From contig JAGRNR010000009.1 of the NCBI GenBank assembly GCA_020440645.1, positions 5,092-69,091 of the forward strand: DNA of 64,000 nt, written 5' to 3'. Below, one piece after another: positions 27,396 to 47,849 of this stretch. This DNA comes from a bacterium (GTDB taxonomy: Bacteria > 4484-113 > JAFGCY01). The notes beneath the pieces were generated by a model. The model did no database searches. It had not been told where the DNA came from and saw only the letters and a list, made by a program, of their open reading frames with translations. The translations under genes were made by a program, and so were the position numbers. Every line of letters starts with the position of its first letter. Within the stretch, counting starts at the first letter, position 1.

Positions 27396-28061
27396 GTGCC
27401 CCTATATTACTTGACAGTGCTGGCGCTCGCCGGGTTCCTGAGTGGATCCCTGCCCTTCGGCTGGCTTGTGGCGCGGCTCGGGGGCATGGACATCCGCAAG
27501 CATGGCAGCGGCAACATCGGCATGACCAATGTCTGGCGCGTGATGGGCTGGAAAGCGGGCCTGACTGTGCTGCTGCTGGACGTGGCCAAGGGCCTGCTGC
27601 CCGTGCTGCTGGCCGGGCGCCTGATGGACACCGTCAACCCACCGGGGCTGACGATCAGTGGCCGCGCCTGGCTGCTGCTGATCACCGGGCTGGCCGCGAT
27701 CCTCGGGCATACATTCACGCCCTGGCTGAAGTTCAGGGGCGGCAAGGGTGTCGCCACCAGCCTCGGTGTGCTGATCGCGCTCTACCAGTTATGGGTGTTG
27801 GCGCCGCTTGGCGTATTCCTGCTGGCGCTGGCAATCACGCGCATGGTGAGTGTCGGCAGCATCCTCGCCGCACTGAGTGTGGGCATCCTTGCGGTGGCCG
27901 TGCCGGCACTCAGGCCCTACATGGCGTTTGGCATCCCAGTGGCTCTGCTCGTGATCTGGACGCACCGCAGCAACATCCGCCGCATCCTCGACGGCACGGA
28001 AAGCCGCGTCGGCAGCGGGAAGAAAAAGCCCGCAGCGGAGTCAACCCAGGCGGATCAGTAG
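27396..28061 (+). CDS. plsY: Glycerol-3-phosphate acyltransferase PlsY
   Basis: GSLPFGWLVARL, HGSGNIGMTNVWRVMG and GHTFTPWLKFRGGKGVATSLG. Confidence 0.95.
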   Translation: MPLYYLTVLALAGFLSGSLPFGWLVARLGGMDIRKHGSGNIGMTNVWRVMGWKAGLTVLLLDVAKGLLPVLLAGRLMDTVNPPGLTISGRAWLLLITGLAAILGHTFTPWLKFRGGKGVATSLGVLIALYQLWVLAPLGVFLLALAITRMVSVGSILAALSVGILAVAVPALRPYMAFGIPVALLVIWTHRSNIRRILDGTESRVGSGKKKPAAESTQADQ

Positions 28062-29755
28062 ATCCCGGCGGAGTGGATCGAATCCAGCATTGCCGAATAG
28101 CCCGCTGACATATGCATCAGCCAGTTCGGATAGATGCCGAGGAAGATGATCGCAGCGCCGAGTGGCAACAGCACGATGGCCTCACGCAGCGGCACACGGC
28201 CCTTCGCCGACTCCGGTGCATCCCCCGGCAGCGTGCGCTGCAGCAGGCTGATCATGTACACCGCGCTCGTCAGCACGCCGATCACCGCCAGGGCCGAGAG
28301 GATCTGCAAAAGCAGGCTGCCGTCGATGCTGCCAACCAGCACCGTCTGCCAGCCCGGCCCGTTCTCGAACGCGCCCATTAAGCTGTACAGCTCGCCCCAG
28401 AAGCCGGCCAGCGCCGGGAAGCCCATGCCGGCGAAGGCCGCCAGCGAAAGCATGCCCGCCAGGAGCGGGGCCGCGCTGCCCAGCCCAGCGATCTCATGCA
28501 CGTTGCGTGTGCCGTAGCGCCGCTCGATGCTGTCCGCCAGCAGGAACAGCGTGGTGATGATCACGCCGTGGCCCACCATGTGGTAGATCGCGCCGGTCGT
28601 TGCCAGCGGGTTCATTGCGCTGCAGCCGAGGATGATGAAGCCCATGTGGCTGATCGAGCTGTAGGCGATCATGCGCTTGATGTCGGTCTGTACCAGCGTG
28701 ACAGCCGCGCCCCAGACGATGCCGATCACCGCCAGCGTGGCAACCACCGGGCCGATCGCGTAACCCTGGTCCGGCAGCGCCCAGTACAGCACGCGCAGGA
28801 ATGCGTATGTCCCGCTCTTGAGCATCACCGCCGCGAGGATCACCGACATTTCCGCCGGGGCCTGGGTATGGGCCGGCGGCAGCCAGGTGTGCAGCGGGAA
28901 CAGCGGTGCCTTGACGGCGAAGGCCACGAGGAAGCCGAGGAAGATCCACATCCTCAGCCAGGGCACGACATCCGTATAGCCCTCGTTCAGCAGGAAGGTT
29001 GCCAGGTTCGGGATCTGGAAGCTGTAAACGCCGGCGCTGATCACCTTGCAGATGATGAGCGACATCAGCATGAACACCGAGCCGGCCATGGTGTACACGA
29101 AGAAGCGGATCGCGGCGCGCGCCGCCTTCTCGCGGTCCTTGCCCCAGCCGCCGATCAGCACGTACATCGGGATCAGCATCCATTCCCAGAACAGGTAGAG
29201 CAGCACGAAGTCCAGCGCCACGAAGGAGCCGATCAGGCCGACCTGCATGAACAGGGTCAGCGCGAGGAATTCCTTCACCCGCTCCGTGCGGTACCAGCCC
29301 CAGATGATGATCAGTGGCAACAGCGCACAGGTCATCAGCACCAGTGGCAATGACAGGCCGTCGATGCCGACGTCGTAGTGCACGCTGAAGCTGCGGCTCT
29401 CGCCGATCTTGATCGCCATCCATTCGATGTCCTGGCGGTACTGGAAGCCCGGGAACTCCGCCTGGAAGGGCGTGTACTGCCCGAGCGGCTTCAGGTCCTG
29501 CACGTTCTGCGAAGTGTCCGTGTATCCGGCGTAGGGCCGCCAGCTGGTTGCACTTTCGGGCAGCCCGGTCAGCAGCAGCACCGCAAACAGCAGGCTGAGC
29601 AGCGAGAACACCAGGGCCACGATCTTGATTGGCAGGATCTTCTTCTTCGGGATCAGGCAGACCAGCAGGCAGCCGACCAGCGGGGCCAGCATCATCTGGG
29701 TGATGGGGTTGCTGATCCACGAGATGAAGCCTATGAAACTCTGCGTCTGGTCCAA
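28055..29755 (-). CDS. nuoM: Complex I antiporter-like subunit, NuoM/ND4 homologue
   Basis: LYLFWEWMLIPMYVLIGGWG, FAVKAPLFPLHTWLPPAH, VMLKSGTYAFLR, AYSSISHMGF and GFWGEL. TTG start at 29755, preceded by GGGAGGT 8 nt upstream, directly after the nuoL TAG. Confidence 0.9.
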   Translation of the reverse strand: MDQTQSFIGFISWISNPITQMMLAPLVGCLLVCLIPKKKILPIKIVALVFSLLSLLFAVLLLTGLPESATSWRPYAGYTDTSQNVQDLKPLGQYTPFQAEFPGFQYRQDIEWMAIKIGESRSFSVHYDVGIDGLSLPLVLMTCALLPLIIIWGWYRTERVKEFLALTLFMQVGLIGSFVALDFVLLYLFWEWMLIPMYVLIGGWGKDREKAARAAIRFFVYTMAGSVFMLMSLIICKVISAGVYSFQIPNLATFLLNEGYTDVVPWLRMWIFLGFLVAFAVKAPLFPLHTWLPPAHTQAPAEMSVILAAVMLKSGTYAFLRVLYWALPDQGYAIGPVVATLAVIGIVWGAAVTLVQTDIKRMIAYSSISHMGFIILGCSAMNPLATTGAIYHMVGHGVIITTLFLLADSIERRYGTRNVHEIAGLGSAAPLLAGMLSLAAFAGMGFPALAGFWGELYSLMGAFENGPGWQTVLVGSIDGSLLLQILSALAVIGVLTSAVYMISLLQRTLPGDAPESAKGRVPLREAIVLLPLGAAIIFLGIYPNWLMHMSAGYSAMLDSIHSAGIY

Positions 29756-31918
29756 CTACTCGTACCTCCCGAGGAAGCTCTGAATGATGCGCCGCAGTGT
29801 CTCGTTGAGCGGGAAGGAGACGACAATGCACATCAGCACGGCACCCAACAGCAGCACGAACATGTAGTTCTGGATCTGCCCGTTCTGCCAGTAGCGGCCG
29901 TGCAGCCGCTTGATGATCCACCAGATCTCGCAGCACCACCAGCGGATGCCGTCGACGAAGTGCAGGTCAAGCCAGGCACTGGCATTGGCCAGCCCACGGC
30001 CGCCGCGCCCGATGCGCGTTGACAGCCAGTCGATCAGGCGGATGTCTGAAATGCCTGCAAGAATTGCGAGGAACTCGCCGAAGCCGCCCACCAGTCCCGT
30101 GAAGAAGGGCTTCAAGTACAGCCCCTCGCGGAAGAATCCGGTCACGCCTGTCAAGAGCGGGGTCGGGCTGGCCAGCCCGCGCTCCGAGGCGGAGACGAAT
30201 CCAAGCACTGCGCCGGCCAGCACCAGCACGACCGAGAGGCCGGCGGCCAGTGGTTCGAAGTTGCCTGCCCATTGCAGGTCGTGCAGCCGGCCCTCGAAAT
30301 AGGCGCGGTAGGATGGCCAGAAGGCGGCGATGCCGATGCTGCCGATGAGCGCCAGCAGGATGGAAATCACAGTCGGTCCGGCCCAGCCATTGCCTGCGGA
30401 CGCTTGCTCCGCCAGGCCATTGGCAGCCTCCTTGCCGGGGGAAGGCATCAGCCCGCTCAGCAGGCGCGCACAGTAGGCTGCGGTAAAGGGAATCGATGCG
30501 ATCAGCAGCAGCGCTCCGGCCTGCCAGTAACCCGGCATGGCGGGCATTGTGCTTGCCAGTGCGTTGCCACCGTAGTCCTGTCCGGCGCGGGACAGCAGCG
30601 CGGAGAGGATCTGGTCCTTGCCGAAGTAGCCCGCCAGCCCGATCACACCGGCCAGGCTCAGGCCGGCCGGCAGCAGGGCCAGCCAGAACAGCTGTCCGCT
30701 GGCGGGGGACTGCCTAAGGTCGTCAAAACTCGGTTCGTCGTCATTATGTGTTGCCTGGGCCTCATGCCAGCGCGCCACCACAATGCCGACCGCAAGGAAC
30801 AGCGCGGCCTTGAACCAGGCATGTGCCAGCAGCTGGAATCGCGCGGCCTCCATCGCCAGCGCCCCGCTGCCCATCACGCACAGCCCAAGCTGGCTGACCG
30901 TGCTCCAGGCCAGCAGCTTCTTCGGCTGCTGCTGGCAACAGGCCACGATCGAGCCCATGAGCATCGTCAGGCCGCCGAGCATCACCGCCCAGGCCAGCGG
31001 GGCCACGTACCAGCCGGGGTTGCCACTGTCCGCCTGCACCGGCACGACAGTTCGCCCGAACAGCAGGTCACTGGCCAACAGCGGCCCGGCCGCCACCAGA
31101 GTTGCACTGTGCAGCAGGGCACTGACCGGGGCCGGGGCCACCATCGCATCCGGCAGCCAGAATGACAGCGGCAGGAGTGCTGCCTTGCCGAGCACGGCCA
31201 GCAGGACTAATAGTCCGGCCACGATCATCCAGTTCACGGCGGACAGCTGGTCCGGTACATGCTGTGCCACCCAGCCGATGCTGACCTGGCTGAGCTGCAC
31301 CATGTGCACACCGAAGCGGCCGAAGCCGAACATGAAGATGAAGATCGCGAACAGCAGCCCGAAGTCCGTGGCGCGCGTCGTCCAGAAGGCCTGGCGCGCT
31401 GCCCGGTTGGCCTCCGGCGTGCCCTTGTGGCGGATCAGCAGGTAGCCGGCGAGGCCCATCATTTCCCAGGCGATGTACAGCAGGATCAAAGTGTCACTGA
31501 CGAGGAACAGCAGCATTGAGCCGCAGAAGAATGTCAGCAGCGCATGGAATTGCGCGGCCTTCGGGTCAGCGCGCCGCTCGCGGATTGCATACAGCAACAC
31601 CGCCACGCCGATCAGGCAGGTTGTCAGGATGAACAGCACCTGCGTGTAGTCCGCGCGCAGGGCCAGCGGGATCGGCGGGAAGGCGCGGATCTCCGTGGTG
31701 TAGCCGCTGATCCAGTTGACCATCCATACCGCGCGGCCGGTCTCGGCATCCAGTCCCGCATTGACGGCGAGCGCCATCCCGGCACTGGCCACAAGCGACA
31801 GCACGCCGAGCAGGGCCGTGACGACGGCCGGCACACGGCGCATGAGCAGGCCCGCCCCCGCCGCCAGCAGCGGCAGAAGCGCGATCAGCGGCAGCAGTCC
31901 CTGCATCTCAGGCACCAC
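29756..31918 (-). CDS. nuoL: Complex I antiporter-like subunit, NuoL/ND5 homologue with a C-terminal lateral-helix region
   Basis: AWEMMGLAGYLLI, GKAALLPLSFWLPDAMVAPAPVSALLHSATLVAAG, HAWFKAALFLAVG and C-terminal FVDGIRWW...LHGRYWQNGQIQNYMFVLLLG. AGGAGG at 31927..31922 precedes in-frame GTG codons at 31918 and 31915. Confidence 0.9.
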   Translation of the reverse strand: MVPEMQGLLPLIALLPLLAAGAGLLMRRVPAVVTALLGVLSLVASAGMALAVNAGLDAETGRAVWMVNWISGYTTEIRAFPPIPLALRADYTQVLFILTTCLIGVAVLLYAIRERRADPKAAQFHALLTFFCGSMLLFLVSDTLILLYIAWEMMGLAGYLLIRHKGTPEANRAARQAFWTTRATDFGLLFAIFIFMFGFGRFGVHMVQLSQVSIGWVAQHVPDQLSAVNWMIVAGLLVLLAVLGKAALLPLSFWLPDAMVAPAPVSALLHSATLVAAGPLLASDLLFGRTVVPVQADSGNPGWYVAPLAWAVMLGGLTMLMGSIVACCQQQPKKLLAWSTVSQLGLCVMGSGALAMEAARFQLLAHAWFKAALFLAVGIVVARWHEAQATHNDDEPSFDDLRQSPASGQLFWLALLPAGLSLAGVIGLAGYFGKDQILSALLSRAGQDYGGNALASTMPAMPGYWQAGALLLIASIPFTAAYCARLLSGLMPSPGKEAANGLAEQASAGNGWAGPTVISILLALIGSIGIAAFWPSYRAYFEGRLHDLQWAGNFEPLAAGLSVVLVLAGAVLGFVSASERGLASPTPLLTGVTGFFREGLYLKPFFTGLVGGFGEFLAILAGISDIRLIDWLSTRIGRGGRGLANASAWLDLHFVDGIRWWCCEIWWIIKRLHGRYWQNGQIQNYMFVLLLGAVLMCIVVSFPLNETLRRIIQSFLGRYE

Positions 31919-31953: not shown

Positions 31954-32439
31954 TCAATCCTTCATCAGGTTGGCATCATCAAGCATGATGCTCTTCTTCA
32001 TGCGGTAGAAGGCGATGATGATCGCCAGCCCGACCGCAGCCTCAGCCGCAGCAACGATGATCACGAATATCGAGAACACCTGGCCCATGTTCGTCATCAC
32101 GGATTCCTCCGCGGTGAACGAGGCCAGGGTGGATTTCGGTCCGTAGTAGAAGTTGAACGCGCTCATGTTGATGTTGACGGCGTTGAGCATCAGCTCCAGC
32201 GCCAGCAGCATCCCGATCGCATTGCGCCGCGCGATCACGCCGTACAGCCCGAGGCAGAAGATGAACGCGCTGAGCACGAAGTACTGGTGGTAGTCCACGT
32301 TGGTGAACCACACCATCGGCGTGTCGCCACTTGAGGCGAACCACTGGCGCGAGGCGAACTCGATCGCCTGGATGATCGGCGCCAGGCCCTCGCTCGCCAG
32401 CGAGCCACCCTCGGACTGTTGCAGCAGCAGCAGTAACAT
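31954..32439 (-). CDS. nuoK: NuoK/ND4L homologue, extended (161 aa versus about 100)
   Basis: RRNAIGMLLALELMLNAVN and VAAAEAAVGLAIIIAFYR. The ATG at 32439 overlaps the nuoJ stop (TGATG). The track ORF (to 32652) is over-extended. Confidence 0.85.
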   Translation of the reverse strand: MLLLLLQQSEGGSLASEGLAPIIQAIEFASRQWFASSGDTPMVWFTNVDYHQYFVLSAFIFCLGLYGVIARRNAIGMLLALELMLNAVNINMSAFNFYYGPKSTLASFTAEESVMTNMGQVFSIFVIIVAAAEAAVGLAIIIAFYRMKKSIMLDDANLMKD

Positions 32440-33485
32440 CAGTCCTTCCTCACCAGGATGATCGCGCCGAGCATCGCCATGAGCAGGAGCACGCTGGCCA
32501 CTTCGAAGGGAAGTGTGTACGTTGCCATCAGCGACCAGCCGATGGCCTGGGTATTGCTTGTCAGTACTGCCGCACTGGGCGGGAACTCGGTGTTCTGCGG
32601 GAACTGCATGAACATCCCGACGAGCGCCATGAAGCCGAACAGCATCGTGCACAAAAGCGCGGCCCAGGGGCTCAGGTCAGTGTTCTGCCTGAGCTCGGTG
32701 CCGATGATGTTCTGGCTGACCATGATGCCGAACAGGAACAGCACCATGATGCCGCCGATGTAGATGATCACCTGCACCATCGCGAGGAACTCAGCGTTGA
32801 GCAGGATGAAGTAGCCGGCCACGCCGAACAGCGAAAGGATCAGCATCAGCGCGGAGTGGAACACGTTGCGCATCGTTACGCAACCGATGCCGCCGCCGAC
32901 CACGCCCGCCGTGAACAGCCAGAAGAAGAAGTTCAGCAGCCTGAGCGCGGGCACGCTGAGTGCCAGCATGCCCCAGAAGAAGGCGATGAAGCCAACGACT
33001 GTGAGGATTGCCAGCAGGCGCCGGTGGTCATGGAAGCGGTGCAGCGAAAGCTGCACGCAGGCGATCGTGCCGCCGACCAGCCCGAGGATCAGCATATTTG
33101 AAAGGTTGACAACCAGCGGCTGGAACAGCAGGGAGCTGATCACGAACACCGCCAGGCCAGCGCTGGCTGCCACCCGCAGCAGTCCGGCCTCCGCCGGCAG
33201 GCGGTTGAACAGCATCAGGTTCAGCAGGTAGAAGCCGGCGAGCATGCTGGCGCCCACCAGGATGCGTGCGTCCAGCTGCAAGGCCGCGGACCAGTCCAGT
33301 TTTCCACCCAGCGCTGCCAGCGGGGCGGCCAGCAGCGCCACAAGCACCGCGATCCCGGCCGTTGCCAGCAGCTGGCGGAAGATGCCGTCCAGCCGGTTGA
33401 CGAGCAGTCCGGCGGCCGCCAGCAACGCGGCCAGCAGGGCCACATTGCGCAGCAGCATAAGGGCGGCGGGCAGGCTGGTTTCCAT
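32439..33485 (-). CDS. nuoJ: NuoJ/ND6 homologue with an N-terminal multi-TM extension of about 170 aa
   Basis: The C-terminal half carries RNVFHSALMLILSLFGVAGYFILLNAEFLAMVQVIIYIGGIMVLFLF and PFEVASVLLLMAMLGAI. The N-terminal half is extra hydrophobic helices. Confidence 0.85.
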   Translation of the reverse strand: METSLPAALMLLRNVALLAALLAAAGLLVNRLDGIFRQLLATAGIAVLVALLAAPLAALGGKLDWSAALQLDARILVGASMLAGFYLLNLMLFNRLPAEAGLLRVAASAGLAVFVISSLLFQPLVVNLSNMLILGLVGGTIACVQLSLHRFHDHRRLLAILTVVGFIAFFWGMLALSVPALRLLNFFFWLFTAGVVGGGIGCVTMRNVFHSALMLILSLFGVAGYFILLNAEFLAMVQVIIYIGGIMVLFLFGIMVSQNIIGTELRQNTDLSPWAALLCTMLFGFMALVGMFMQFPQNTEFPPSAAVLTSNTQAIGWSLMATYTLPFEVASVLLLMAMLGAIILVRKD

Positions 33486-34480
33486 CAGGAACTCACCTCC
33501 CCGCGTGGCCGCCTGAGCGGCAGCACCAGCGCCTCGCGATTGGCAACCGGCATCGCCCAGCGCTCCTCGAACACGACGAGCGGGGTGCCGTCCGCGCGCT
33601 TCAGTTCGCCCAGCGCGGGATCATGGTCATAGCGTCCGAGGTCAACGAACAGCACCGTCGGCTGCCCGGGGGCCTGCGCGATTGCACCGCTGCCATCGGC
33701 GGCGATGATGCGCAGCGCTTCCTCCTCAGTCAGTGAGTCGACATTCAAGAGCGGCACGCCGCGGTAGGCCGCCGGCAGCTTCGGCCGGCTGCGCGGATAG
33801 TCCTCGGTGAAGGGCTCGCTCGAAGCCATCCGGGCGGTCTCGCGGAAGCCGGTCAGCACGGAGGTGCCGTAGCGGTGCACGCGGTTGCTGAAGAACCAGA
33901 ATTGGCTGAAGCCGGTTGCAAGGTAGCTCAGGTTGAGCACGAACACCAGGAACCAGAACAGCGCCCAGAGCATGAAGTAGCCGAGCTGGAACTTGAACAC
34001 GGGGAGGCTGCCGGTCTCGCGCCAGATGGCGAAGCCCTCGCCGCTGAGCAGAAGCGTCAGGTTCGGCGTGTCGGCAATGCCCTTCACGCTCATCTTCGGG
34101 TGGATGCGGTCCAGCGGGTCGAATTCCACGATGAAGAAGAACAGGATGATCACGAACAGCAGCAGACGCCAGAGCGTGAAGTCGCGCACCATCCAGCGGC
34201 TGTACTTCACAAGCGCGCCGGATGCCCACCAGAAGAAGCCGAGAATCGCCGGCAGGGCCAGCAGCAGGCCGCTAGCAGTGAACCACATCAGAGAGTACTG
34301 CTCGGAGGGCTGCTTGGAGGCATAGTCGTCAAACAGCGCGCCGTATTTCGTGTAGACGAACACCAACGTGAACCAGGACACGGCGATGAAGCCATAGAAC
34401 TTGAACCAGTCCATCGCGGTGTAGCCGAACCAGCGCTTCGGCAGCGGATGGTGGATTGTCAGGTCATGCCCGTCAGGCAT
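33485..34480 (-). CDS. Unknown polytopic membrane protein with a soluble C-terminal domain (331 aa), embedded in the complex I-like operon
   Basis: The ATG at 34480 (MPDGHDL) overlaps the upstream stop by 8 nt, and its own stop overlaps the nuoJ ATG (TGATG). Trp/Phe-rich TM segments. No cysteine at all, so it is not a NuoI ferredoxin. Confidence 0.75.
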   Translation of the reverse strand: MPDGHDLTIHHPLPKRWFGYTAMDWFKFYGFIAVSWFTLVFVYTKYGALFDDYASKQPSEQYSLMWFTASGLLLALPAILGFFWWASGALVKYSRWMVRDFTLWRLLLFVIILFFFIVEFDPLDRIHPKMSVKGIADTPNLTLLLSGEGFAIWRETGSLPVFKFQLGYFMLWALFWFLVFVLNLSYLATGFSQFWFFSNRVHRYGTSVLTGFRETARMASSEPFTEDYPRSRPKLPAAYRGVPLLNVDSLTEEEALRIIAADGSGAIAQAPGQPTVLFVDLGRYDHDPALGELKRADGTPLVVFEERWAMPVANREALVLPLRRPRGEVSS

Positions 34481-34943
34481 GCTGCACCTCCTCCACCGTT
34501 TCCGGCTCGTTGGCAGCACTGCCGCCCGCTCCTGCTGCGGCGATGTTGCGCAGCTGGGCATGGTGCCCGGGCGCCGTCACCACGAACCAGTAGAGGAAGC
34601 CGGGCAGCAACAGCAGCACCGGCCGCAGTGTGAACTGCAGTTCGTACTGCAGCCACAGCGAATACAGGCAGCCGCAGGCCGCGAAGCTCCACAGCAGGGA
34701 AGCGATGCCGGGCCGCCGCCTGAACCAGGGGTTGATCCAGGCCGCATTGCGCGCCGGCGTCAGCGGCAGCACCGCCAGCAGCAGGCCGATTGCCAGCAGG
34801 GCCAGCGGGCCGAACCACTGCGTTGTCAGCACGGGTGCCACTCCAAGCACGATGCGCAGGTACAGGCCCCAGGCCCCGGCGGCCACGAGCAGCAGCTCTC
34901 CGAGGAGATGCAGCAGGTTCTGGCTGGTTGACAGCATCCTCAT
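34473..34943 (-). CDS. Unknown small membrane protein (156 aa, about 4 TM), embedded in the complex I-like operon
   Basis: The ATG at 34943 overlaps the nuoH stop (ATGA). Sequence MRMLSTSQNLLHLLGELLLVAAGAWGLYLRIVLGV... The track ORF (to 35042) is over-extended into nuoH. Confidence 0.7.
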   Translation of the reverse strand: MRMLSTSQNLLHLLGELLLVAAGAWGLYLRIVLGVAPVLTTQWFGPLALLAIGLLLAVLPLTPARNAAWINPWFRRRPGIASLLWSFAACGCLYSLWLQYELQFTLRPVLLLLPGFLYWFVVTAPGHHAQLRNIAAAGAGGSAANEPETVEEVQHA

Positions 34944-36715
34944 CCGGTCCAGCTCACCTCCCGGCGGGGCTGCGGATGTCGGCGCTGCACGAACAGGATG
35001 CGCCAGGCCATCAGGAGGATGAACAGGCCGAAGAACAGGCACAGCACGTTGTAGCCCCAGAAGAAGGCCTTCTCGGGGACTGTCATCACCGCCAGTGCTT
35101 CAGCTGTTGTCAGCGTCTGGTACTGGGTGACGCGCTGCAGGGCGGTCACGTCGACATCGGAGACGGCCAGCTGGTTCGCGCTGAACCAGGGATGGCGGTT
35201 GACGACGCCGAGCGCGGTGGCCGCCATCACGACCACGCTGGCCGGCAGCAGGAACTTCCAGGAGAAGAACATGATCTGGTCCACGCGGATGCGCGGCATC
35301 GTGGAGCGCGCCCATATGAAGAAGAAGCACACGGCGTAGGTCTTCAGCAGGAACCAGAACAGGCTCGTCAGCCACAATCCGTCGGGGCCGAGGAACATCG
35401 GGCCCTTCCAGCCGCCGAAGAAGCAGACGGTCATGATCGCGCTGACGATGAACACGTTGGAGTACTCGGCGACATAGAACAGCGCGAAGCGCATCCCGCT
35501 GTACTCCACCAGGTAGCCGCCCAAGAGCTCGTTCTGCGCTTCCGGCAGGTCAAAGGGCGGGCGGTTGGTCTCGGCAAGGCTGACAACGAGGTAGATGATG
35601 AAGGCCGGGAACAGCGGCAGGATGCCCCAGGTCATCGTCTGGCGCTGCACGATCTCCGTCAGGTTCAGCGAACCGGCAAAGATGGCAACGCACAGCAGGC
35701 TCATCAGCATCGGGATTTCGTAGGTCAGCAGCATCGCGGCCTCGCGCATCGCGCCGACCAGTGCATATTTGTTGTTGGAGGCGTAGCCGGACATGATCAC
35801 GGCCACGAGGAACATCGCAAAGTCGGCGATGATCAGGAGCAGGCCGACATTCAGGTCCTGGATCATGTAGTAGATGATCTGCCCGTCGACAGCCGCCACG
35901 CCGAACGGGATCACCACCCAGCTCAGGAGCGCCGGCAGGTAGACGAGGATCGGCGCGATCAGGTACAGCAGCTTGTCAGCGCTGAGCGGAACGGTGTCTT
36001 CCTTGAAGAAGATCTTGATCGTGTCGTAGAAGCCCTGGCGCCAGTAGTAGCGCAGCATGTAGCTCATGTAGAGCACGAAGGCGACCACGGTGCACAGCAC
36101 GGTGAGCTGCGGCAAAAACGGGATGTGCGCCTTCGGGATGAAGCCCAGCAGGAGAGCGACGAGCATGCCACCGCAGGACGCGAGGGATGGCCAGGCCAGC
36201 AGTGACAGCAGCGTTGCCAGGAAGCGCCAGACGGAGGTCTGCGCGGCCTGCATCCGGCCGAGCGCTGGCAGGATCATCAAGCGGTTGATCAGCCCCATCA
36301 TGCCCACGGCGAAGAACAGGATGATCCAGCCGCCGAACTGTTGCCAGCCGGCGGTGCCGCCGGTCCAGTAGTTGATGCCGTACAGCAGCGCGGGCAGGCC
36401 GATCAGCACGCCGATCTGCAGGAAGATCCGCCGGAAGCGCTGCGGGGTGACCTCGCCGTACTCCTGCGGGCCGCGGCGGCCCTGCATGCGCGCCATCAGG
36501 CGGCGTTCCCAGACCTGCAGGCCGATGGTGATCATCAGCTCCAGGAGGAAGATCAGCAGGAGCGCCGTCACCAACATGATGCCGTTGGCAACCTCCGGGC
36601 TGAAGCGCAGGCCGGGCAGCGGCTCGGTGTTGAGCCAGGCGCGCATCGCCTCCCAGACGGTGCGGGCCTCGTCCATGTCGTAGCGCTGCTGCAGGATTGC
36701 CAGCATCGGGAGCAT
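34940..36715 (-). CDS. nuoH: NuoH/ND1 homologue, enlarged (591 aa) by a multi-TM insertion after TM1
   Basis: WERRLMARMQGRRGPQ, then about 170 inserted residues, then IKIFFKED, SLAETNRPPFDLPEAQNELLGGYLVEYSG and ARSTMPRIRVDQ. The ATG at 36715 overlaps the nuoD stop (TGATG). Confidence 0.85.
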   Translation of the reverse strand: MLPMLAILQQRYDMDEARTVWEAMRAWLNTEPLPGLRFSPEVANGIMLVTALLLIFLLELMITIGLQVWERRLMARMQGRRGPQEYGEVTPQRFRRIFLQIGVLIGLPALLYGINYWTGGTAGWQQFGGWIILFFAVGMMGLINRLMILPALGRMQAAQTSVWRFLATLLSLLAWPSLASCGGMLVALLLGFIPKAHIPFLPQLTVLCTVVAFVLYMSYMLRYYWRQGFYDTIKIFFKEDTVPLSADKLLYLIAPILVYLPALLSWVVIPFGVAAVDGQIIYYMIQDLNVGLLLIIADFAMFLVAVIMSGYASNNKYALVGAMREAAMLLTYEIPMLMSLLCVAIFAGSLNLTEIVQRQTMTWGILPLFPAFIIYLVVSLAETNRPPFDLPEAQNELLGGYLVEYSGMRFALFYVAEYSNVFIVSAIMTVCFFGGWKGPMFLGPDGLWLTSLFWFLLKTYAVCFFFIWARSTMPRIRVDQIMFFSWKFLLPASVVVMAATALGVVNRHPWFSANQLAVSDVDVTALQRVTQYQTLTTAEALAVMTVPEKAFFWGYNVLCLFFGLFILLMAWRILFVQRRHPQPRREVSWTG

Positions 36716-37866
36716 CACTTGTCGACCTCCCCGATCATGATGTCGAGGCTGCCGTAGATCACGAACAGGTCCGCCAGCAGGTAGCCGCGGCACAGCTCGT
36801 CCAGCAGGAACAGGTGGTACAGGCTCGGCGCACGCAGGTGCATGCGGCTCGGGCGGTTGCTGCCGTCGCTGACGAGTGTCAGGCCGAGCTCGCCGCGCGG
36901 GCTCTCGACCGCCGTGTAGACCTCGCCGCGTGAGACCTGCATCGCAGCGAAGTCTGGGCTGACATCCGCCGCCCGCAGCTCGCCGTTGTCAATGTAAGCC
37001 AGGCAGTGCTCAATGATGCGCAGGCTCTCGCGCATCTCGACGAAGCGCACGCGGTAGCGGTCCAGCACATCGCCATACTCGCCGGTCGGCACATGCAGCT
37101 CCAGCTCGCCGTACATCGCATAGGGCTGGTCGCGGCGCAGGTCATGCGCGATCCCGCTGCCGCGCAGCACGGGCCCGGTGGCACCGTGCTCGAAGGCGAA
37201 CTCGGGCTCGAGCGTGCCGATCAGCTCGCTGCGGTTGACCCAGATCGCGTTGTCAGAGAAGAAGTCCTCGTATTCATCCAGCCGGCCCTGGAACCACAGG
37301 CAGAATGCCCGCACATGGCCGCTGAAGTCCTCCGGCGGGGCAGTGCGCACGCCGCCGGGCACGATCCAGCCGTGGTGGTGGCGGTGCCCGCTGAGCATCT
37401 CCAGCAGGTCGAGCAGCATCTCGCGCTCGCGCAGCGAGATGAAGATCGGGGTGTAGGCGCCGGCCTCCAGGCCGAGGTTGCCAAACCAGAACAGGTGGTT
37501 GCCGATCCGGCTCAGCTCCAGCACAAGGGTGCGCAGCCACTGCGCACGGGCCGGAACCGTGATCCCCTCGATGCGCTCGATGGCGTCCGCCACCAGCCAG
37601 TCCGCATTGCTGCCGGCCAGCCACTCGCAGCGGGACAACAGCCCCGCCGCCTGGGCGTAGTTGCGCTGGGTCACCAGCTGCTCCACGCCGCGGTGCATGA
37701 AGCCGACCTCCGGCGTGATGCGCTCGATCAGCTCGCCGTCCGCCTGTACCCGCAGTTCCAGCGGGCTCGGCAGGCTCGGATGCTGCGGGCCGACGGAGTA
37801 GACCAGCTTCTCGGTCAGCAGCGGGTCGCGGCGGATCTCGACACGGCGATCAGAGCTGCGCGTCAT
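36715..37866 (-). CDS. nuoD: NuoD / 49-kDa / NiFe-hydrogenase-large-subunit-like protein lacking quinone-ligand and NiFe-ligand residues
   Basis: GPQHPSLPSPLEL (canonical GPQHPxxHGVLRL), GFMHRGVE, SRCEWL (canonical RxDY), REREMLLDLLE, SPRGELG, RAPS and C-terminal DIMIGEVDK. GGGAGGTG lies 6 nt before the ATG at 37866. Confidence 0.85.
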   Translation of the reverse strand: MTRSSDRRVEIRRDPLLTEKLVYSVGPQHPSLPSPLELRVQADGELIERITPEVGFMHRGVEQLVTQRNYAQAAGLLSRCEWLAGSNADWLVADAIERIEGITVPARAQWLRTLVLELSRIGNHLFWFGNLGLEAGAYTPIFISLREREMLLDLLEMLSGHRHHHGWIVPGGVRTAPPEDFSGHVRAFCLWFQGRLDEYEDFFSDNAIWVNRSELIGTLEPEFAFEHGATGPVLRGSGIAHDLRRDQPYAMYGELELHVPTGEYGDVLDRYRVRFVEMRESLRIIEHCLAYIDNGELRAADVSPDFAAMQVSRGEVYTAVESPRGELGLTLVSDGSNRPSRMHLRAPSLYHLFLLDELCRGYLLADLFVIYGSLDIMIGEVDK

Positions 37867-38431
37867 CAAGCACCTCCCGCATCGCCGCGTCCGCGCGCTG
37901 TTTCAGCACGTTTTCAGCGTAGTTCTCATGTGAGGCAGCCCTGAACTCCCGCCTGAGCGGGAAGCCCTGCAGCTGCGGGTCGAGGATCAGGCCAATGAGG
38001 TTAGGGTTGCCGGCGAAGGGGATGCCGAAGAACTCGAAGATCTCGCGCTCCATCAGCTCCGTGGCCCGCCAGATCAGGCTCAGGCTGGGGTGCACGCTCT
38101 GCCCGGCATAGGCCGGCGCGGCCTCGCTGTCCTCCCCGCCCGGATCCGTTGCCGGGGGATTGCCCTCCAGCAGGGTGAATTTCCATTTCAGTGTGAGGCT
38201 GACGTCATGCCGCCTGCCGTGCCTGAGCGTCAGGTAGAGGTGGAAGTCCGGCCCGCCGAGGTGGTTGGCGGTCATGTTCAGCGCACGGATGAAGCCGATG
38301 TTCTTCAGCTGGCGGCAGACCAGCGGCAGCTGGCCGCTGTCCGTCAGGATCGCCCAGCCGCGGGCGGGGTCCAGCAGCAGCACATCACCGCAGTCCTCAC
38401 GGATCTGACCGGCAAGCTCATCAGGGAGCAC
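37850..38431 (-). CDS. nuoC: NuoC / 30-kDa subunit homologue
   Basis: SLSLIWRATELMEREIFEFFGIPFAGNPNL and GFPLRREF. GGAGG lies 5 nt before the GTG at 38431. The track uses the TTG at 38434. Confidence 0.8.
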   Translation of the reverse strand: MLPDELAGQIREDCGDVLLLDPARGWAILTDSGQLPLVCRQLKNIGFIRALNMTANHLGGPDFHLYLTLRHGRRHDVSLTLKWKFTLLEGNPPATDPGGEDSEAAPAYAGQSVHPSLSLIWRATELMEREIFEFFGIPFAGNPNLIGLILDPQLQGFPLRREFRAASHENYAENVLKQRADAAMREVLDDAQL

Positions 38432-38537
38432 CAAGTCCTCCCCATCCTGGCTGGATTACGGCAATCGGCATACAGGTATAAACGATCAAAAGCCCCACAG
38501 CGTTACCTTATACATACAAAATGCAAAGGCTTTTGTA

Positions 38538-38543
38538 ATTCTA
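38538..38543 (-). promoter_or_regulatory. Putative -10 box TAGAAT in the AT-rich region upstream of nuoC
   Basis: The + strand reads attcta, about 106 nt upstream of the nuoC start. It implies that nuoC..M is transcribed separately from nuoAB. Confidence 0.35.
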
Positions 38544-38689
38544 GCCGATGGGGCAGCGCTGATCACCGCCTGCAGGCAATTGGTTGAAGGGCGTGTGGGT
38601 CTGCCAGCCCAATTGTTAACAGCGGGAAAATCAAAGTAAAGTCCCGATTCAATTAGTTGATTCATTATCTTGCGAGCCTGGATAATTTC

Positions 38690-38695
38690 TATAAT
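38690..38695 (+). promoter_or_regulatory. Putative -10 box TATAAT for the membrane-protein/histidine-kinase pair
   Basis: The + strand reads TATAAT, 54 nt before the ATG at 38750. Confidence 0.35.
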
Positions 38696-38749
38696 TCAAA
38701 TCGTCAGACCCAGTCTGTACCGGTTGAATTCAAGATTCCAGGTCAAGGC

Positions 38750-39025
38750 ATGCCACAGCAGCATGAATTAATTACTGCAATCCTCGGACTTGGCGTGTTG
38801 TTGCTGATGATCGTGCAACGCCGCCAGCTGCGGCTCATCCCTGACTACCGCTGGCTGTTCCTCTCCTACTGCCTGATCCTGCTGGCCTGGCTGCTGACCA
38901 TTGCGGAAGATTACTGGCTGCCGGTCTACATGAACCTGCTGGAGCATATCTGTTACCTGGCCAGCGCAGCGCTGGTCGCCTGGTGGACACAGAAGTTCCT
39001 CAGAAGGGAAGCGCCACAGCAATGA
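38750..39025 (+). CDS. Small 3-TM membrane protein resembling the kinase sensor membrane domain
   Basis: MPQQHELITAILGLGVLLLMIV... The segment IPDYRWLFLSYCLILLAWLL parallels RRDYLWCLIILLVVLGL in the kinase. ATGA overlap with the kinase start. Confidence 0.6.
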   Translation: MPQQHELITAILGLGVLLLMIVQRRQLRLIPDYRWLFLSYCLILLAWLLTIAEDYWLPVYMNLLEHICYLASAALVAWWTQKFLRREAPQQ

Positions 39026-40836
39026 GCATGCTGCTGACGGTGTTTGACCTGCTGAGCCTGCTGGCCGTGCTGTCTGCACTGTGGCTGGCGGCAGCCAGGC
39101 GGATTGCCGGCCTGCGGCGTGACTACCTGTGGTGCCTGATCATCCTGCTGGTGGTGCTGGGTCTCAACTTCCTCAGCAACCTGCTGGACAACAGCGGGCT
39201 GAGCCCCTGGCTGGAGCGCTTCGAGGACTACCCCGGACTGCTGCAGCCGGTGTTCTGGGGCATCCTCCTGATGAGCCTGGTGCAGGACCGCGCCCTGCGC
39301 CGCACCGAGCTCTCTGAACAGCGGCTGCGCGGCCTGCTGGACGCGATGCGTGACGGGGTTGCCACTATTGACCCGGGTGGCGTGTTCCGCTTTGCCAACC
39401 CGGCGGCCGCGGAAATCCTCGGGGTTGCCCACGGCAGCCTTAGCGGCCGCAGTCTGGACGAGTTCTGGCTGGCTACCGAATCGCATACTTGCCGGATGCT
39501 GCCACATTCCCCGGGCCAGGATTACAGCGCCTACGAATGCGGCATCCGCCATGGCAGCGGCGACAGCCTCGTGCTGCTGCTGCAGGTCTCGCCGATCCCG
39601 GGCCAGCCCCGCCAGCGCCTGCTGTTCATGCATGATGTGACCCCGCTGCGCCGGGCCGAGCACAGCCTGCAGCAGGCCCAGGCCCAGCTCGGACAGGCCC
39701 AGCGGCTGGAGGCGATCGGCACGCTGGCCAGCGGCATCGCCCATGACTTCAACAACATCCTGTTCGCGATTTCCGGCAACAGCCAGATCGCGCTGGATAC
39801 TGAGGGACTGACCGTCGATGCGCGGGAGAGCCTGCGCGAGATCGACACCGCCAGCCGCCGCGCCTCCGACCTGGTGGCGCAGATCCTCAACTTCAGCCGC
39901 AGCGAGAAGAGCCGGACACGGGACCTGTTGCCACTTCCGGTTGTCAAGGAAGTGCTGCGCCTGCTGCGCTCCACCGTGCCGCCGCAGGTCAGCATCCAGC
40001 TCAGCCATGACGAATCGACGTGCCGGATCCATGCCGACCCGACCGACCTGCACCAGCTGCTGATGAACCTCTGCACCAATGCGATCCAGGAGATGGCGGT
40101 GGAGGGCGGGACGCTGCGGGTCCGGTTGGAGTGCAGCAATCCACCGCCGACACTGGCCGAGCGGGGAATGCTGCAGCCTAAACCACACCTGATGCTCAAG
40201 GTCAGTGACACGGGGGGCGGTATTCCACCGGATGCGCTGCCGCACATCTTCGAGCCCTTCTTCACGACCAAGCCAAGCGGTGAGGGCACCGGTCTAGGGC
40301 TGTTCGTTGTCAGCGGGATCGTCAAGCGCCTGCAGGGACAGATCGAGATTGACAGCGAACCGGGCCATGGCAGCAGCTTCACGGTCTGGCTGCCGCTGTC
40401 CAGCGGGGCCGCTGATGCCGACGATGCCGGGCCGGGGCAGGCCACCGGCCGCGGCCGGGGCCGGCTGCTGGTGGTTGACGACGAGCCGGCGGTCAACCGG
40501 GTGCTGGCGCTGATGCTCGGCCAGCTCGGCTACAAGGTGACAACCTATAGCGACAGCTACCGCGCGCTCAGTGAGTTCCAGACCAACCCGGAGCAGTACG
40601 ACCTGCTGCTGTGCGACATCTCGATGCCGGGCCTGCGCGGCGATGAACTGGTGAAGCGGATACGCTCCGTTCGCCCAGGCCTGCCGGTGGTGCTGTGCTC
40701 CGGCAATCCGGATGTTCTGCCTCCGGGCAGTGCAACTGAACTGGGTGTGCATGCAGTGCTTAAGAAACCGGTTGACAAGCCACAGCTGGCGGATTGCATC
40801 GCCGAGGCACTTGGCAGTAACCGTGCACAGGCCTGA
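39022..40836 (+). CDS. Hybrid sensor histidine kinase (TM sensor, PAS, HisKA, HATPase_c, receiver)
   Basis: LASGIAHDFNNIL (H box), LMNLCTNAIQE (N), DTGGGIP (G1), GTGLGL (G2). Receiver RLLVVDDEP...LLLCDISMPG...VLKKPV. Confidence 0.9.
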   Translation: MSMLLTVFDLLSLLAVLSALWLAAARRIAGLRRDYLWCLIILLVVLGLNFLSNLLDNSGLSPWLERFEDYPGLLQPVFWGILLMSLVQDRALRRTELSEQRLRGLLDAMRDGVATIDPGGVFRFANPAAAEILGVAHGSLSGRSLDEFWLATESHTCRMLPHSPGQDYSAYECGIRHGSGDSLVLLLQVSPIPGQPRQRLLFMHDVTPLRRAEHSLQQAQAQLGQAQRLEAIGTLASGIAHDFNNILFAISGNSQIALDTEGLTVDARESLREIDTASRRASDLVAQILNFSRSEKSRTRDLLPLPVVKEVLRLLRSTVPPQVSIQLSHDESTCRIHADPTDLHQLLMNLCTNAIQEMAVEGGTLRVRLECSNPPPTLAERGMLQPKPHLMLKVSDTGGGIPPDALPHIFEPFFTTKPSGEGTGLGLFVVSGIVKRLQGQIEIDSEPGHGSSFTVWLPLSSGAADADDAGPGQATGRGRGRLLVVDDEPAVNRVLALMLGQLGYKVTTYSDSYRALSEFQTNPEQYDLLLCDISMPGLRGDELVKRIRSVRPGLPVVLCSGNPDVLPPGSATELGVHAVLKKPVDKPQLADCIAEALGSNRAQA

Positions 40837-40884
40837 CGGGCGGGCGCGTCAGTGCTTTGTGATATACATGGGGAGGAGGCAGGC

Positions 40885-41250
40885 ATGGCGAAGAAGAAGT
40901 TCGAGGATGTGGACCCGCAGGTGCTGGCGGCCTACATGAAGATGATCGGGGGCGTTGAAGGGGTCGAGGCCAAGGGGGCCGCCGCGCCGTACACCTCCCT
41001 GAATGGCAATATGTACTCCAGTATCTCGAAGTTCAACGAGATCGGCCTGCGGCTGGCGAAGGATGAGCGCGAGGCCTTCCTCGAGAAGTACGACACCCGG
41101 CTCTACCACTCCATCCCCGGATATGTGCAGCGGGAGTATGTCACCGTGCCGCCTGCACTGTTTGGCAACACACGCACTCTGCGCAGCTGGTTCCGGAAGT
41201 CCTACGACTACGTCTCATCACTGCCGGCGAAGCCCACGAAGAAGAAGTAG
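40885..41250 (+). CDS. Small cytoplasmic protein (121 aa), possibly TfoX-N/YjbR-like fold (tentative)
   Basis: GGAGGAGG at 40872..40879, 5 nt before the ATG at 40885. Sequence MAKKKFEDVD...PYTSLNGNMYSSISKFNEIGLRLAKDEREAFLEKY...REYVTVPPALF...LRSWFRKSYDYV. Confidence 0.55.
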   Translation: MAKKKFEDVDPQVLAAYMKMIGGVEGVEAKGAAAPYTSLNGNMYSSISKFNEIGLRLAKDEREAFLEKYDTRLYHSIPGYVQREYVTVPPALFGNTRTLRSWFRKSYDYVSSLPAKPTKKK

Positions 41251-41313
41251 CGGGAAGGATTTCGGCGCTCGCTTGTCGGCAGTAGCGGGCGCGCTTGGCG
41301 ACGCCATGGAGTG

Positions 41314-41471
41314 ATTGCCGCGAAGCAATGAGTGATGGTGTGTTGGTCTGCAGACCAACAGGGCCCTGTGGCTCTCAAGAGCCACACTCCGCCGCGTGCG
41401 CGCAGCCACGCGGAAAGCCCCTCTGCAATGAGCAATGCGGAGCAAGCAATGAGCCCGACGACACTCATTGC
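41314..41471. repeat. Cluster of five hairpins/palindromes with recurring GCAATGAG motifs in a 490-bp non-coding gap between convergent genes
   Basis: Hairpins: attgc..gcaat (41314..41329); a perfect 20-bp palindrome tgttggtctgcagaccaaca (41341..41360); tgtggctct ca agagccaca (41367..41386); ccgcgtg..cacgcgg (41392..41413); gcaatgag..ctcattgc (41446..41471). The motif gcaatgag occurs at 41325, 41425 and 41446. Confidence 0.6.
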
Positions 41472-41741
41472 CAGACTCTGCGGCTCTGCGTTCACCAATA
41501 TCGCTCCACCCCAGCCGCATTGCCAACCAAGTGCAGGCTAGCCTCAGCCCAGTCAAACTGGAGAATTGTCAACACAGAGCCACCGAGCGCACAGAGTTTT
41601 CTGATCAGCTCCAGTCCCCGCATTTCCCTGACTTCGCTGCATCCCCTCCCAATCGCGGCTGGGCCGCGCCGGTTCTTCCGGTAACCCTGACCCTTGTTCT
41701 TCAGGTTGACTGATTCACTGGGAAATCCGAGACGAGCCAGT

Positions 41742-42539: not shown

Positions 42540-42558
42540 GGTTCATGGTAATGCGATC

Positions 42559-43011
42559 CTACCGCCACGCAAACCGCTCATCCAGCGCACCCGAGAGGAT
42601 GCGCTCCCGGAGCGCGATGATGCCGTCGATCAGCTGCTCGGGCCGCGGCGGGTCGCCCGGCACATAGATGTCCACTGGTACGATGCGGTCCACTCCCCCG
42701 TCCACCGCATAGCTGCCGTCGAAGGGCGCGCCGCTGATCGCCCCCGCGCCAAACGCCATCACGAAGGCCGGGTCGGCCATCGAGGCATGCAGCCGGCGGA
42801 TCACCGGGGCCATCTTGTTGTTGACGACGCCGGCCACGATCAAAAGGTCCACCTGGCGCGGGCTGGGGCGCATCACCTCAGAGCCGAAGCGCGCGATGTC
42901 ATAGCGCGGCGAGATCGCGCTGAACAGTTCCAGCGTGGCGTAGTCCAGTCCGAGCATCAGCGGCCACAGGGAATGGGCACTGGCCTCGCGGATGAGGTCC
43001 TTCAGACCCAT
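42559..43011 (-). CDS. nuoB: NuoB / PSST / hydrogenase-small-subunit-like protein with no cysteine (N2 cluster ligands all replaced)
   Basis: SLWPLMLGLDYATLELFS (canonical SLWPxxFGLACCAIEMM), SPRQVDLLIVAG, NKMAPVIRRL, FGAGAISGAPF (canonical MGACASSGG) and VDIYVPGDPPRPE (canonical VPGCPPRPE). There are zero Cys in 150 aa. Confidence 0.85.
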   Translation of the reverse strand: MGLKDLIREASAHSLWPLMLGLDYATLELFSAISPRYDIARFGSEVMRPSPRQVDLLIVAGVVNNKMAPVIRRLHASMADPAFVMAFGAGAISGAPFDGSYAVDGGVDRIVPVDIYVPGDPPRPEQLIDGIIALRERILSGALDERFAWR

Positions 43012-43400
43012 TCCAGCGCTCCCTTGCGGTAGGCATAGGCCCAGCCGACGAGCAGGATGCCGAGGAACACGAACATCTCGCCCAGTGAGGCGGCCCCGAT
43101 CGGCGTGAAGGTGATGTCGTCATTGCCGAACACCAGCAGCCGGAAAGCGGTGGCCCAGGGGAAGATGAACATGATGTCCACGTCGAACATGAGGAACACG
43201 ATCGCGAGGATGTAGAAGCGGATGTTGAAGCGCACCAGCGCATCGCCGGTGGCCTGCGCGCCGGATTCATAGCTCAGGCGCTTGAGGAAGTTCGGCCGCC
43301 GCGGACGCCACAGGTTCAGGAAAGCGAATGCCAGCCCGATCAGCACCGCCCCGCCCAGCAGGAAGAGTGCCACCCAGTTGTACTGTCCAACGGTGTTCAT
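43002..43400 (-). CDS. nuoA: NuoA/ND3 homologue
   Basis: LSYESGAQATGDALVRFNIRFYILAIVFLMFDVDIMFIFPWA. A 10-nt overlap with nuoB. Confidence 0.85.
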   Translation of the reverse strand: MNTVGQYNWVALFLLGGAVLIGLAFAFLNLWRPRRPNFLKRLSYESGAQATGDALVRFNIRFYILAIVFLMFDVDIMFIFPWATAFRLLVFGNDDITFTPIGAASLGEMFVFLGILLVGWAYAYRKGALEWV

Positions 43401-45553: not shown

Positions 45554-45608
45554 CTTTATTCCTCACTGCGCCCGGATACTCTCCAGCAAGCTGGAGGGGC
45601 AGCACAGA

Positions 45609-45614
45609 ATTCTA
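45609..45614 (-). promoter_or_regulatory. Putative -10 box (gTTAGAATTCTGTGC) for paralog 1
   Basis: It lies 55 nt upstream of the ATG at 45553. GAGGAATAAAG ATG supplies the SD. Confidence 0.4.
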
Positions 45615-45675
45615 ACTGAAAGAATCACCAAACTGAGCTTCGCGGCAAGCAGGTCCCAGCTACCCCTGGCACGGT

Positions 45676-47790: not shown

Positions 47791-47843
47791 CTTTATTCCT
47801 TGAACCTGCCTGGTTCCTTATGGCAGTGCAGGAGGCTGGGAAA

Positions 47844-47849
47844 ATTCTA
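47844..47849 (-). promoter_or_regulatory. Putative -10 box TAGAAT for paralog 2
   Basis: It lies 53 nt upstream of the ATG at 47790. AAGGAATAAAG ATG is nearly identical to the paralog 1 leader end. Confidence 0.4.

Follow-up and report, generated by a model that had tools for sequence, protein, structure and literature searches.

Can a complex I shed its redox chemistry and still be maintained as a membrane complex? The question is raised by a minus-strand operon in a 64,000-nucleotide stretch of bacterial DNA (hereafter, the window; contig JAGRNR010000009.1, positions 5,092 to 69,091, assembly GCA_020440645.1), and in particular by its homologue of nuoD. For complex I, the central open question is how quinone chemistry is coupled to proton pumping at a distance of some 200 angstroms, and a redox-free complex that keeps the E-channel and the antiporter modules separates the two halves, i.e., what the membrane arm does alone and what structural share the remaining peripheral stub has. 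Here, we conclude that the nuoD homologue encodes the 49-kDa subunit of a complex-I-derived NuoA-B-C-D-H-X-I*-J-K-L-M complex without redox chemistry (X and I* denoting an extra membrane subunit and a NuoI derivative), most plausibly a Mrp-like cation/proton antiporter, a reading that we give an even chance when taken as a whole. Its parts are not equally secure. Judging from the sequences, the complex is very probably redox-dead yet functional, and it is likely still an ion translocator; that it is specifically a cation/proton antiporter is proposed tentatively and by analogy.

The gene at the center of this question is the following.

36715..37869, minus strand: nuoD homologue, 384 amino acids from a TTG start; Pro34 is encoded at 37768-37770 and Trp83 at 37621-37623, and Glu135 stands in place of Asp.

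A second start candidate, an ATG at 37866, lies one codon downstream of the TTG. An earlier note on this DNA had let the gene begin there; the open reading frame (ORF) opens one codon earlier, at 37869.

The quinone ligands of the Thermus complex are H38 and Y87 of the NuoD-type subunit (PMC4758237). In the window protein, GPQHPSLPSPLEL spans residues 27-39, SRCEWL spans residues 79-84 and the C-terminus reads SLDIMIGEVDK. A phmmer alignment with mouse NDUFS2, ungapped over both motifs, pairs GPQHPAAHGVL with GPQHPSLPSPL and FDRLDYVS with LSRCEWLA, thereby placing His92 opposite Pro34 and Tyr141 opposite Trp83 (numbering of the 463-residue deposited chain). Likewise, H224 and Y273 of E. coli NuoCD (locus L086) fall on Pro34 and Trp83 in a MAFFT alignment. 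We take these mouse and E. coli residues to be the equivalents of Thermus H38 and Y87. Both alignments thus bear out the earlier note, which had read Pro at the His position and Trp at the Tyr position. Nor are the ligands displaced by a few residues, as the only His in the vicinity is H30 of QHP, which is conserved universally, and no Tyr lies within 7 residues of W83 in the window protein. The blocks said to be conserved elsewhere in the protein (GFMHRGVE, REREMLLDLLE, SPRGELG and RAPS) were all found in the translated ORF, and the hydrogenase Cys motifs are indeed missing, with Cys occurring at positions 81, 190, 289 and 360 only and no CxxC anywhere. Close to where N2 would sit, the window protein retains Arg80 and His165.

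We show that these losses are shared by a whole clade. A search of 5.8 billion proteins recovered about 45 NuoD orthologues, 56-95% identical and sharply bounded, the next matches being canonical NuoD at ≤46%. By pairwise identity (43-46%) rather than by a formal phylogeny, canonical NuoD proteins are the nearest relatives outside the clade. We compared the window protein and 38 full-length members (n = 39) with 75 canonical homologues. The Tyr position is Trp in 39/39 clade members and Tyr in 75/75 canonical proteins, and the His position, occupied by His in 75/75 canonical proteins, never holds His in the clade (0/39; Pro in 17, Val in 10, Ala and Thr in 4 each, with Ile, Cys and Ser also found). 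No orthologue therefore carries the canonical residues, which answers the second doubt that the earlier note had raised about its own claim. Of the 133 NuoD columns conserved at ≥80% among canonical proteins, the clade keeps 111 and changes 22, the latter including columns 33-37 in the beta1-beta2 loop (THGVL to L-x-A-P-V), columns 58-67, the Tyr loop (DRxDY to SRCEW), D135E, Y144W, R170V and D177E. The clade has its own fixed residues as well, since P36, S79 and W83 are invariant, E82 and E135 are nearly so, and Cys81 is present in 36/39. We also considered a new three-His metal site formed by NuoD GHRHHHGW with D23, Y24 and D120 of NuoB; this candidate was rejected, with H162 found in 18/39 members and H166 in 31/39.

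NuoD proteins lacking H38 or Y87 are already known from Sulfolobus, Nautiliales, Desulfurobacteriales and Fpo, where Ile is the replacement (PMC4758237). The window clade resembles these variants in the absence of one or both ligands and differs in its invariant Trp. Complexes with such NuoD or FpoD variants keep the N2 cluster of NuoB and the NuoI clusters and remain oxidoreductases. Because ligand-less variants occur in complexes that contain iron-sulfur (Fe-S) clusters, the NuoD substitutions alone are unremarkable, and the total loss of Fe-S ligands described below is what matters.

By sequence and fold, the window protein belongs to the true NuoD type, scoring 386 bits with NCBIfam NF004739 (equivalog cut-off 360) and matching Pfam PF00346 with an E-value (E) of 2e-80. 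Among Protein Data Bank (PDB) chains searched by phmmer, the complex I 49-kDa subunits NDUFS2, Nqo4 and NuoD matched at E of about 1e-84 to 1e-56; on the hydrogenase side, the MBS large subunit matched at 1e-61, MbhL at 4e-44 and HycE at 5e-32. An AlphaFold2 monomer model (predicted local distance difference test 67, predicted TM-score 0.72, with low confidence in the beta1-beta2 loop and the C-terminus) returned exclusively complex I 49-kDa chains among its top 50 Foldseek matches, at a TM-score of about 0.77. Assignment to Ehr or to the group 4 [NiFe] hydrogenases was ruled out by the weaker MbhL and HycE matches, the NuoD model score and the absent Cys motifs.

The evidence that carries our reading comes from two further subunits that hold Fe-S clusters in a canonical complex, NuoB and NuoI.

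42559..43011, minus strand: Cys-free nuoB, 150 amino acids; NCBIfam NF005012, 163 bits (cut-off 116).
33485..34480, minus strand: nuoI derivative (NuoI*), 331 amino acids, identical to P0121 / MCB1186391.1, which is annotated as "hypothetical protein".

NuoB was said to be free of Cys, and the translation confirms it, with zero Cys in 150 residues. Aligned by phmmer to T. thermophilus Nqo6 (2fug_6), the four ligand positions C45, C46, C111 and C140 become Y24, A25, G90 and D120, and the Ala that precedes the N2 ligand pair becomes D23. This pattern of ligand loss is common to all seven loci of the clade that we compared, i.e., the window, L001-L004, L082 and L083. It is exceedingly uncommon elsewhere. 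When 1.84 billion cluster representatives were searched exhaustively with phmmer, 146 of the 150 best NuoB matches carried all four Cys, and the only Cys-less proteins among those 150 are P0168, the representative of the window's clade, and P0171; of the other two, one is truncated and one is probably an artefact. P0169 (533 amino acids) contains a NuoB/NdhK-like segment repeated with identical flanks and lacks the first Cys pair; it is probably an artefact of assembly or gene calling, not a third Cys-poor lineage.

NuoI* consists of an N-terminal membrane domain of about 215 amino acids and a C-terminal NuoI-like soluble domain, has zero Cys overall and occupies the usual nuoI slot between nuoH and nuoJ. 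Searches of PDB sequences with NuoI* (phmmer) or with a profile hidden Markov model (HMM) of its family returned nothing meaningful. Several other lines of evidence connect its soluble domain to NuoI. The decisive one is a homologue at the same position in a sister locus, L084, which links both sides: it matches the window NuoI* over both domains (BLASTP E 5.6e-13), and its C-terminal domain matches canonical NuoI (E 1e-11). In addition, hhalign aligned the NuoI* family with 40 canonical NuoI proteins (P 3e-5), including TxxYP...LPxxYRG and both former cluster regions, and the top six PDB matches of the NuoI* AlphaFold2 model in Foldseek were MbhN, NDUFS8 (three chains), HycF and MbsN, with weak E of 0.1-2. 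From the sister homologue, and with hhalign, Foldseek and gene position in agreement, we identify the soluble domain of this "hypothetical" 331-residue protein as NuoI. Neither of the CxxCxxCxxxCP motifs (for N6a and N6b) is present in any of 22 aligned members of the NuoI* family, all eight Cys being gone. The view of the earlier note that the NuoD/NuoB interface has no recognisable catalytic chemistry left is thus supported, and the case is now stronger than it was, as the NuoI homologue is Cys-free too.

The sister locus (L084; European Nucleotide Archive (ENA) ERZ27262642, contig k141_265788; proteins P0171 and P0318) may also tell how these ligands were lost. Its operon, like that of the window, comprises A-B-C-D-H-I*-J-K-L-M; in both, NuoB has no Cys, NuoD has neither the His nor the Tyr, and NuoI is membrane-anchored. 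It differs in its replacing residues (E, D, G and S at the NuoB ligand positions; in NuoD, Trp for the His and Ile for the Tyr), in a NuoH that lacks the large insertion described below, and in the absence of gene X. Its NuoI* (13562-14626) keeps four Cys, namely the CP of motif 1 (AAACP) and the CxxCxxC of motif 2 (RCYFCGLC, the final CP missing). In the 2x[4Fe-4S] ferredoxin fold, the CP Cys of one motif and the CxxCxxC of the other form the ligand set of a single cluster. Such a single NuoI cluster would be isolated in this lineage, because the NuoB of the same operon is Cys-less. As far as can be judged from these sequences, the lineage, which is very rare (two 90% clusters found), looks like an intermediate in which N2 was lost first and the NuoI clusters later.

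The remaining genes of the window operon are listed below.

43002..43400, minus strand: nuoA, 132 amino acids; Pfam PF00507, E 1e-27; D79 is kept and E81 is Asp (E. coli numbering).
37850..38434, minus strand: nuoC, 194 amino acids; Pfam PF00329, E 1e-15, over its C-terminal half only; overlaps the nuoD start and has orthologues in L001-L004.
34940..36715, minus strand: nuoH, 591 amino acids; its ATG overlaps the nuoD stop by 1 nucleotide; Pfam PF00146, E 3e-97.
34473..34943, minus strand: gene X, 156 amino acids with about four transmembrane helices; ATGA overlap with the nuoH stop.
32439..33485, minus strand: nuoJ, 348 amino acids; Pfam PF00499 on residues 199-344.
31954..32439, minus strand: nuoK, 161 amino acids from an ATG that overlaps the nuoJ stop; Pfam PF00420.
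29756..31918, minus strand: nuoL-like antiporter subunit, 720 amino acids; NCBIfam NuoL model NF005141, E 1e-75, below its cut-off.
28055..29755, minus strand: nuoM-like antiporter subunit, 566 amino acids; TIGR01972, 451 bits (cut-off 264); the last gene of the operon.

On the minus strand the order is nuoA, nuoB, an insertion of about 4.1 kb, nuoC, nuoD, nuoH, X, the nuoI derivative, nuoJ, nuoK, nuoL and nuoM, and the gene after nuoM lies on the opposite strand. Stop and start codons overlap at most junctions from nuoC to nuoK, pointing to translational coupling. The same operon content recurs in the seven loci named above, of which L001 is contiguous on a 2.7-Mb ENA contig, and all reading frames are intact in all seven at 43-65% NuoD identity. 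None of the seven operons contains nuoE, nuoF, nuoG or nuoN, and no conserved substrate or partner gene was found adjoining the operon among the compared loci. The gap between nuoB and nuoC varies from about 4.1 kb in the window to about 5-7 kb in its close relatives L002 and L003, and the two genes adjoin each other in L001 and L004. The closest genomes are metagenome-assembled genomes (MAGs) of uncultured bacteria, one of them labelled UBP7 (HKST-UBA03), and a 4.1-Mb contig with the NCBI label Planctomycetales also carries a near-identical NuoI* (UNM09594.1).

On its plus strand, the insertion in the window (38435-42558) encodes a small membrane ORF (38657-39025), a hybrid sensor kinase (38983-40836; PAS, HisKA, HATPase and receiver domains) and an ORF that weakly resembles TfoX_N, scoring below the Pfam cut-off (40852-41250); on the minus strand, a 265-amino-acid ORF (41742-42539) comes directly after nuoB. 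In L082, the operon is interrupted between nuoH and the nuoI derivative by a nucleotidyltransferase/HepT-like toxin-antitoxin pair (13956-14569).

We next compare the fate of the membrane arm with that of the electron path. Aligned across the clade loci and in E. coli numbering, NuoL keeps E144, D178, K229, H254, H338, K342, K399 and an acidic residue at 400 (D400 in the window); NuoM keeps E144, K234, K265, H322, H348 and E407; NuoK keeps E36 and E72; NuoJ keeps Y59 and E80; NuoA keeps D79; and NuoH keeps E36, R37, D63, E157, D213, E216, E220, E228, K274, R291, R293 and K303. The exceptions among the charged residues checked are NuoH E218 (Gln or Ser), NuoA E81 (Asp) and NuoL H334, which is Gln in part of the clade. 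The electron path from the NuoI clusters through N2 to the quinone head group is therefore without ligands, and the ion-pathway residues are intact except for these substitutions. Columns conserved in canonical proteins were kept at 22/24 in NuoA, 24/26 in NuoJ, 32/35 in NuoK, 51/60 in NuoM and 64/77 in NuoH, with lower retention in NuoB (40/53), NuoD (83/114) and NuoL (82/153).

All subunits are under purifying selection. The ratio of nonsynonymous to synonymous substitution rates (dN/dS), calculated between the window and L002 and L003 (about 90% NuoD identity), ranged from 0.05 to 0.38 for the Nuo subunits, with about 0.15 for both NuoD and NuoB, and was about 0.55 for X; in these estimates, dS may be affected by a strong bias in third-position GC content. 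NuoL is the most diverged Nuo subunit (about 0.36).

The membrane arm has also gained parts. By hydropathy, NuoH carries an insertion of about 140 amino acids with about four extra transmembrane helices between its first transmembrane helix and the conserved Q-x-x-AD-x-x-K loop, as well as an extra C-terminal transmembrane helix, and canonical chains match it by phmmer in two stretches that flank the insertion. The Q-x-x-AD-x-x-K loop of canonical NuoH lines the quinone cavity. NuoJ has an N-terminal extension of about 180 amino acids with about five transmembrane helices, common to L002 and L003 and shorter or absent in L001 and L004, and NuoK has one of about 40 amino acids from its apparent ATG at the nuoJ stop. 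X is fast-evolving, and its position is kept in most clade loci; homologues were found in L002-L004, and the genes at that position in L001 and L083 resemble each other and not the window X (BLASTP). Pfam returned no usable match at E up to 10 for X, the membrane domain of NuoI*, the NuoH insertion, the NuoJ extension or two of the ORFs between nuoB and nuoC. In total, about 15 extra transmembrane helices are distributed over NuoH, X, NuoI* and NuoJ. The NuoH, NuoI and NuoJ region forms the "heel" of canonical complex I.

How might such a complex work? Because no redox energy source is left, only downhill or exchange transport would be possible. The stub of B, C, D and I* may survive as a cofactor-free structural or gating cap, in which Asp23 and Asp120 of NuoB may replace the negative charge of the lost cluster beside the retained Arg80 of NuoD, and in which Trp83 and Pro36 may occupy the former head-group pocket or change its shape. 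The complex would then run as a secondary cation/proton antiporter, working like Mrp, with inward proton flow through L and M providing the energy; the trigger, in place of quinone chemistry, would be a cation (perhaps Na+) that binds close to the former quinone or E-channel site. The additional helices at the heel would form or guard a new substrate path. Na+/H+ antiport has reportedly been observed for the deactive form of mitochondrial complex I (Roberts and Hirst 2012). Related MAGs, to judge from their isolate names, were recovered from a saline activated-sludge plant and from Zodletone spring (PMC8495973), habitats that fit an antiporter.

Several observations weigh against an antiporter of this kind. 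Neither MrpB, MrpE, MrpF or MrpG nor a Na+-site signature was detected, and the accessory membrane parts belong to no Pfam family. NuoL, one of the two putative antiporter subunits, is unusually diverged and has Gln at H334 in the window. Moreover, the constraint on NuoD and NuoB (dN/dS 0.15) exceeds what a passive cap might need, which hints at a specific role for the stub. Because both proteins are highly constrained and Trp83, Pro36, Ser79, Glu82 and Glu135 are invariant or nearly so, the data suggest that the stub is more than ballast, maybe a gate, or else a site that binds a ligand or a cation.

The same constraint and near-invariant residues, in pointing to more than ballast, make a conformational machine or quinone-sensing regulator a serious rival, albeit one that we regard as unlikely. 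In such a machine, powered by the proton-motive force (pmf), protons flowing through L, M and the E-channel would move the remodelled quinone cavity and the heel helices, and the work done would be the extraction, flipping or transport of a hydrophobic, isoprenoid-like ligand or of another solute. A variant of this proposal has quinone or quinol bound without catalysis and its ring stacked against Trp83; the pocket would then sense redox state and gate ion flow. NuoD and NuoB are constrained as strongly as the core membrane subunits, the clade-specific residues of NuoD (Cys81 among them) read as a specific site and not as a filled-in hole, and the roughly 15 novel helices cluster on the heel subunits without resembling any known family. 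However, a conserved candidate gene for a substrate or partner is missing next to the operon, the free variation at the His position (P, V, A, T, I, C, S) speaks against an exact ligand-binding geometry there, and the sister lineage L084 has other residues (Trp and Ile) at both sites.

A second alternative, which we consider improbable, is that the complex is still a redox enzyme, using non-Cys cofactors or Fe-S subunits encoded elsewhere that replace the stub or dock on it. NuoD does retain Arg80 and His165 and has the clade-specific C81, C289, C360 and H352, and L084 may still hold one cluster. Besides, the electron-input modules of 11-subunit complexes often lie elsewhere in the genome (PMC3144371). 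Yet without any Cys in NuoB and NuoI* there can be no cubane in the conserved electron path, NuoD offers neither quinone ligand nor a CxxC, and H162 and H166 are not conserved, leaving no three-His site. Replacement by paralogues is also unlikely, given the purifying selection on the operon's own B and I*. With no Cys in two of the three cluster-bearing proteins, a hidden redox function is unlikely. The least probable explanation, that the operon is a non-functional, decaying remnant or an inert scaffold without transport, would account for the lost catalytic ligands, the inserted genes in the window and in L082 and the relatively relaxed constraint on X and NuoL, but a pseudogene or decaying operon was rejected on dN/dS well below 1 for every subunit and on residue retention, with intact frames in seven diverged loci, invariant clade-specific residues and preserved translational coupling telling the same story.

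Returning to the complex-I-derived, Mrp-like complex, we placed it among known systems. The closest is the minimal 11-subunit complex I (NuoA-D and H-N; Nuo11, NDH-1-like), to which A-B-C-D-H-I-J-K-L-M are homologous and in the same gene order. The window complex differs from it in lacking the N2 ligands, the NuoI cluster ligands, the quinone His and Tyr and NuoN, in the fusion of NuoI to a membrane domain, in the extra transmembrane helices of NuoH and NuoJ, and in the extra subunit X. With respect to the features by which complex I is recognised, a NuoD-type subunit and the proton-pathway residues are present; the quinone ligands, the N2 Cys, the NuoI motifs and, within the operon, the L+M+N set with an input partner are absent. 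We therefore regard the complex as a redox-dead variant and not as a standard complex I, because these four defining family features are missing.

Mrp (Mnh/Pha/Sha) is independent of redox chemistry and combines two NuoL/M-type antiporter-like subunits with a NuoK-like subunit. The L, M and K subunits of the window also match the NCBIfam models of MrpA, MrpD and MrpC, below cut-off. Mrp has no homologues of NuoH, A, B, C, D or I, all of which the window complex has, and its B, E, F and G subunits are those not found here. By its sequences, the window complex is a descendant of true complex I and not of Mrp, and its likeness to Mrp is functional only. Ehr/MBS belongs to the same superfamily, and its large subunit has also lost the ancestral catalytic ligands, Ehr being presumed to be redox-active (PMC6349859). 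These complexes differ in their descent from group 4 hydrogenases and in that their Fe-S clusters and redox function are assumed to be kept (shown for MBS), whereas the window complex has no Fe-S ligands.

We found no description of a complex I homologue without Fe-S ligands in the literature, the coverage of which was incomplete, so that prior work is possible. On balance, we lean towards the view that this is the first natural complex I to have shed every redox center (N2, both NuoI clusters, the quinone site and the input module) while a selected proton-translocating arm was kept, an instance of regressive evolution towards a cofactor-free secondary ion transporter or a pmf-driven conformational engine, with L084 showing the order of loss. 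The finding also bears on the evolutionary relationships between Mrp, hydrogenases and complex I, and suggests that this path can run backwards. On a practical note, the public names "NADH-quinone oxidoreductase subunit D/B", together with "hypothetical protein" for NuoI*, would lead metabolic reconstructions to wrongly credit these organisms with respiratory complex I.

Elsewhere in the window, four consecutive minus-strand genes (43454-52914) encode large, apparently secreted paralogues. Pfam scans of two of them (47904-49997 and 50092-52914) detected repeated PKD domains, along with PPC domains in the larger, and the other two (43454-45553 and 45676-47172) are similar to these PKD paralogues by eye only. 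A 1232-amino-acid subtilase follows on the plus strand (53077-56775). Large ankyrin-repeat proteins are uncommon in free-living bacteria; the window encodes two of them (1628-4021 and 57978-60308), and a faint ankyrin match lies near the L082 operon.

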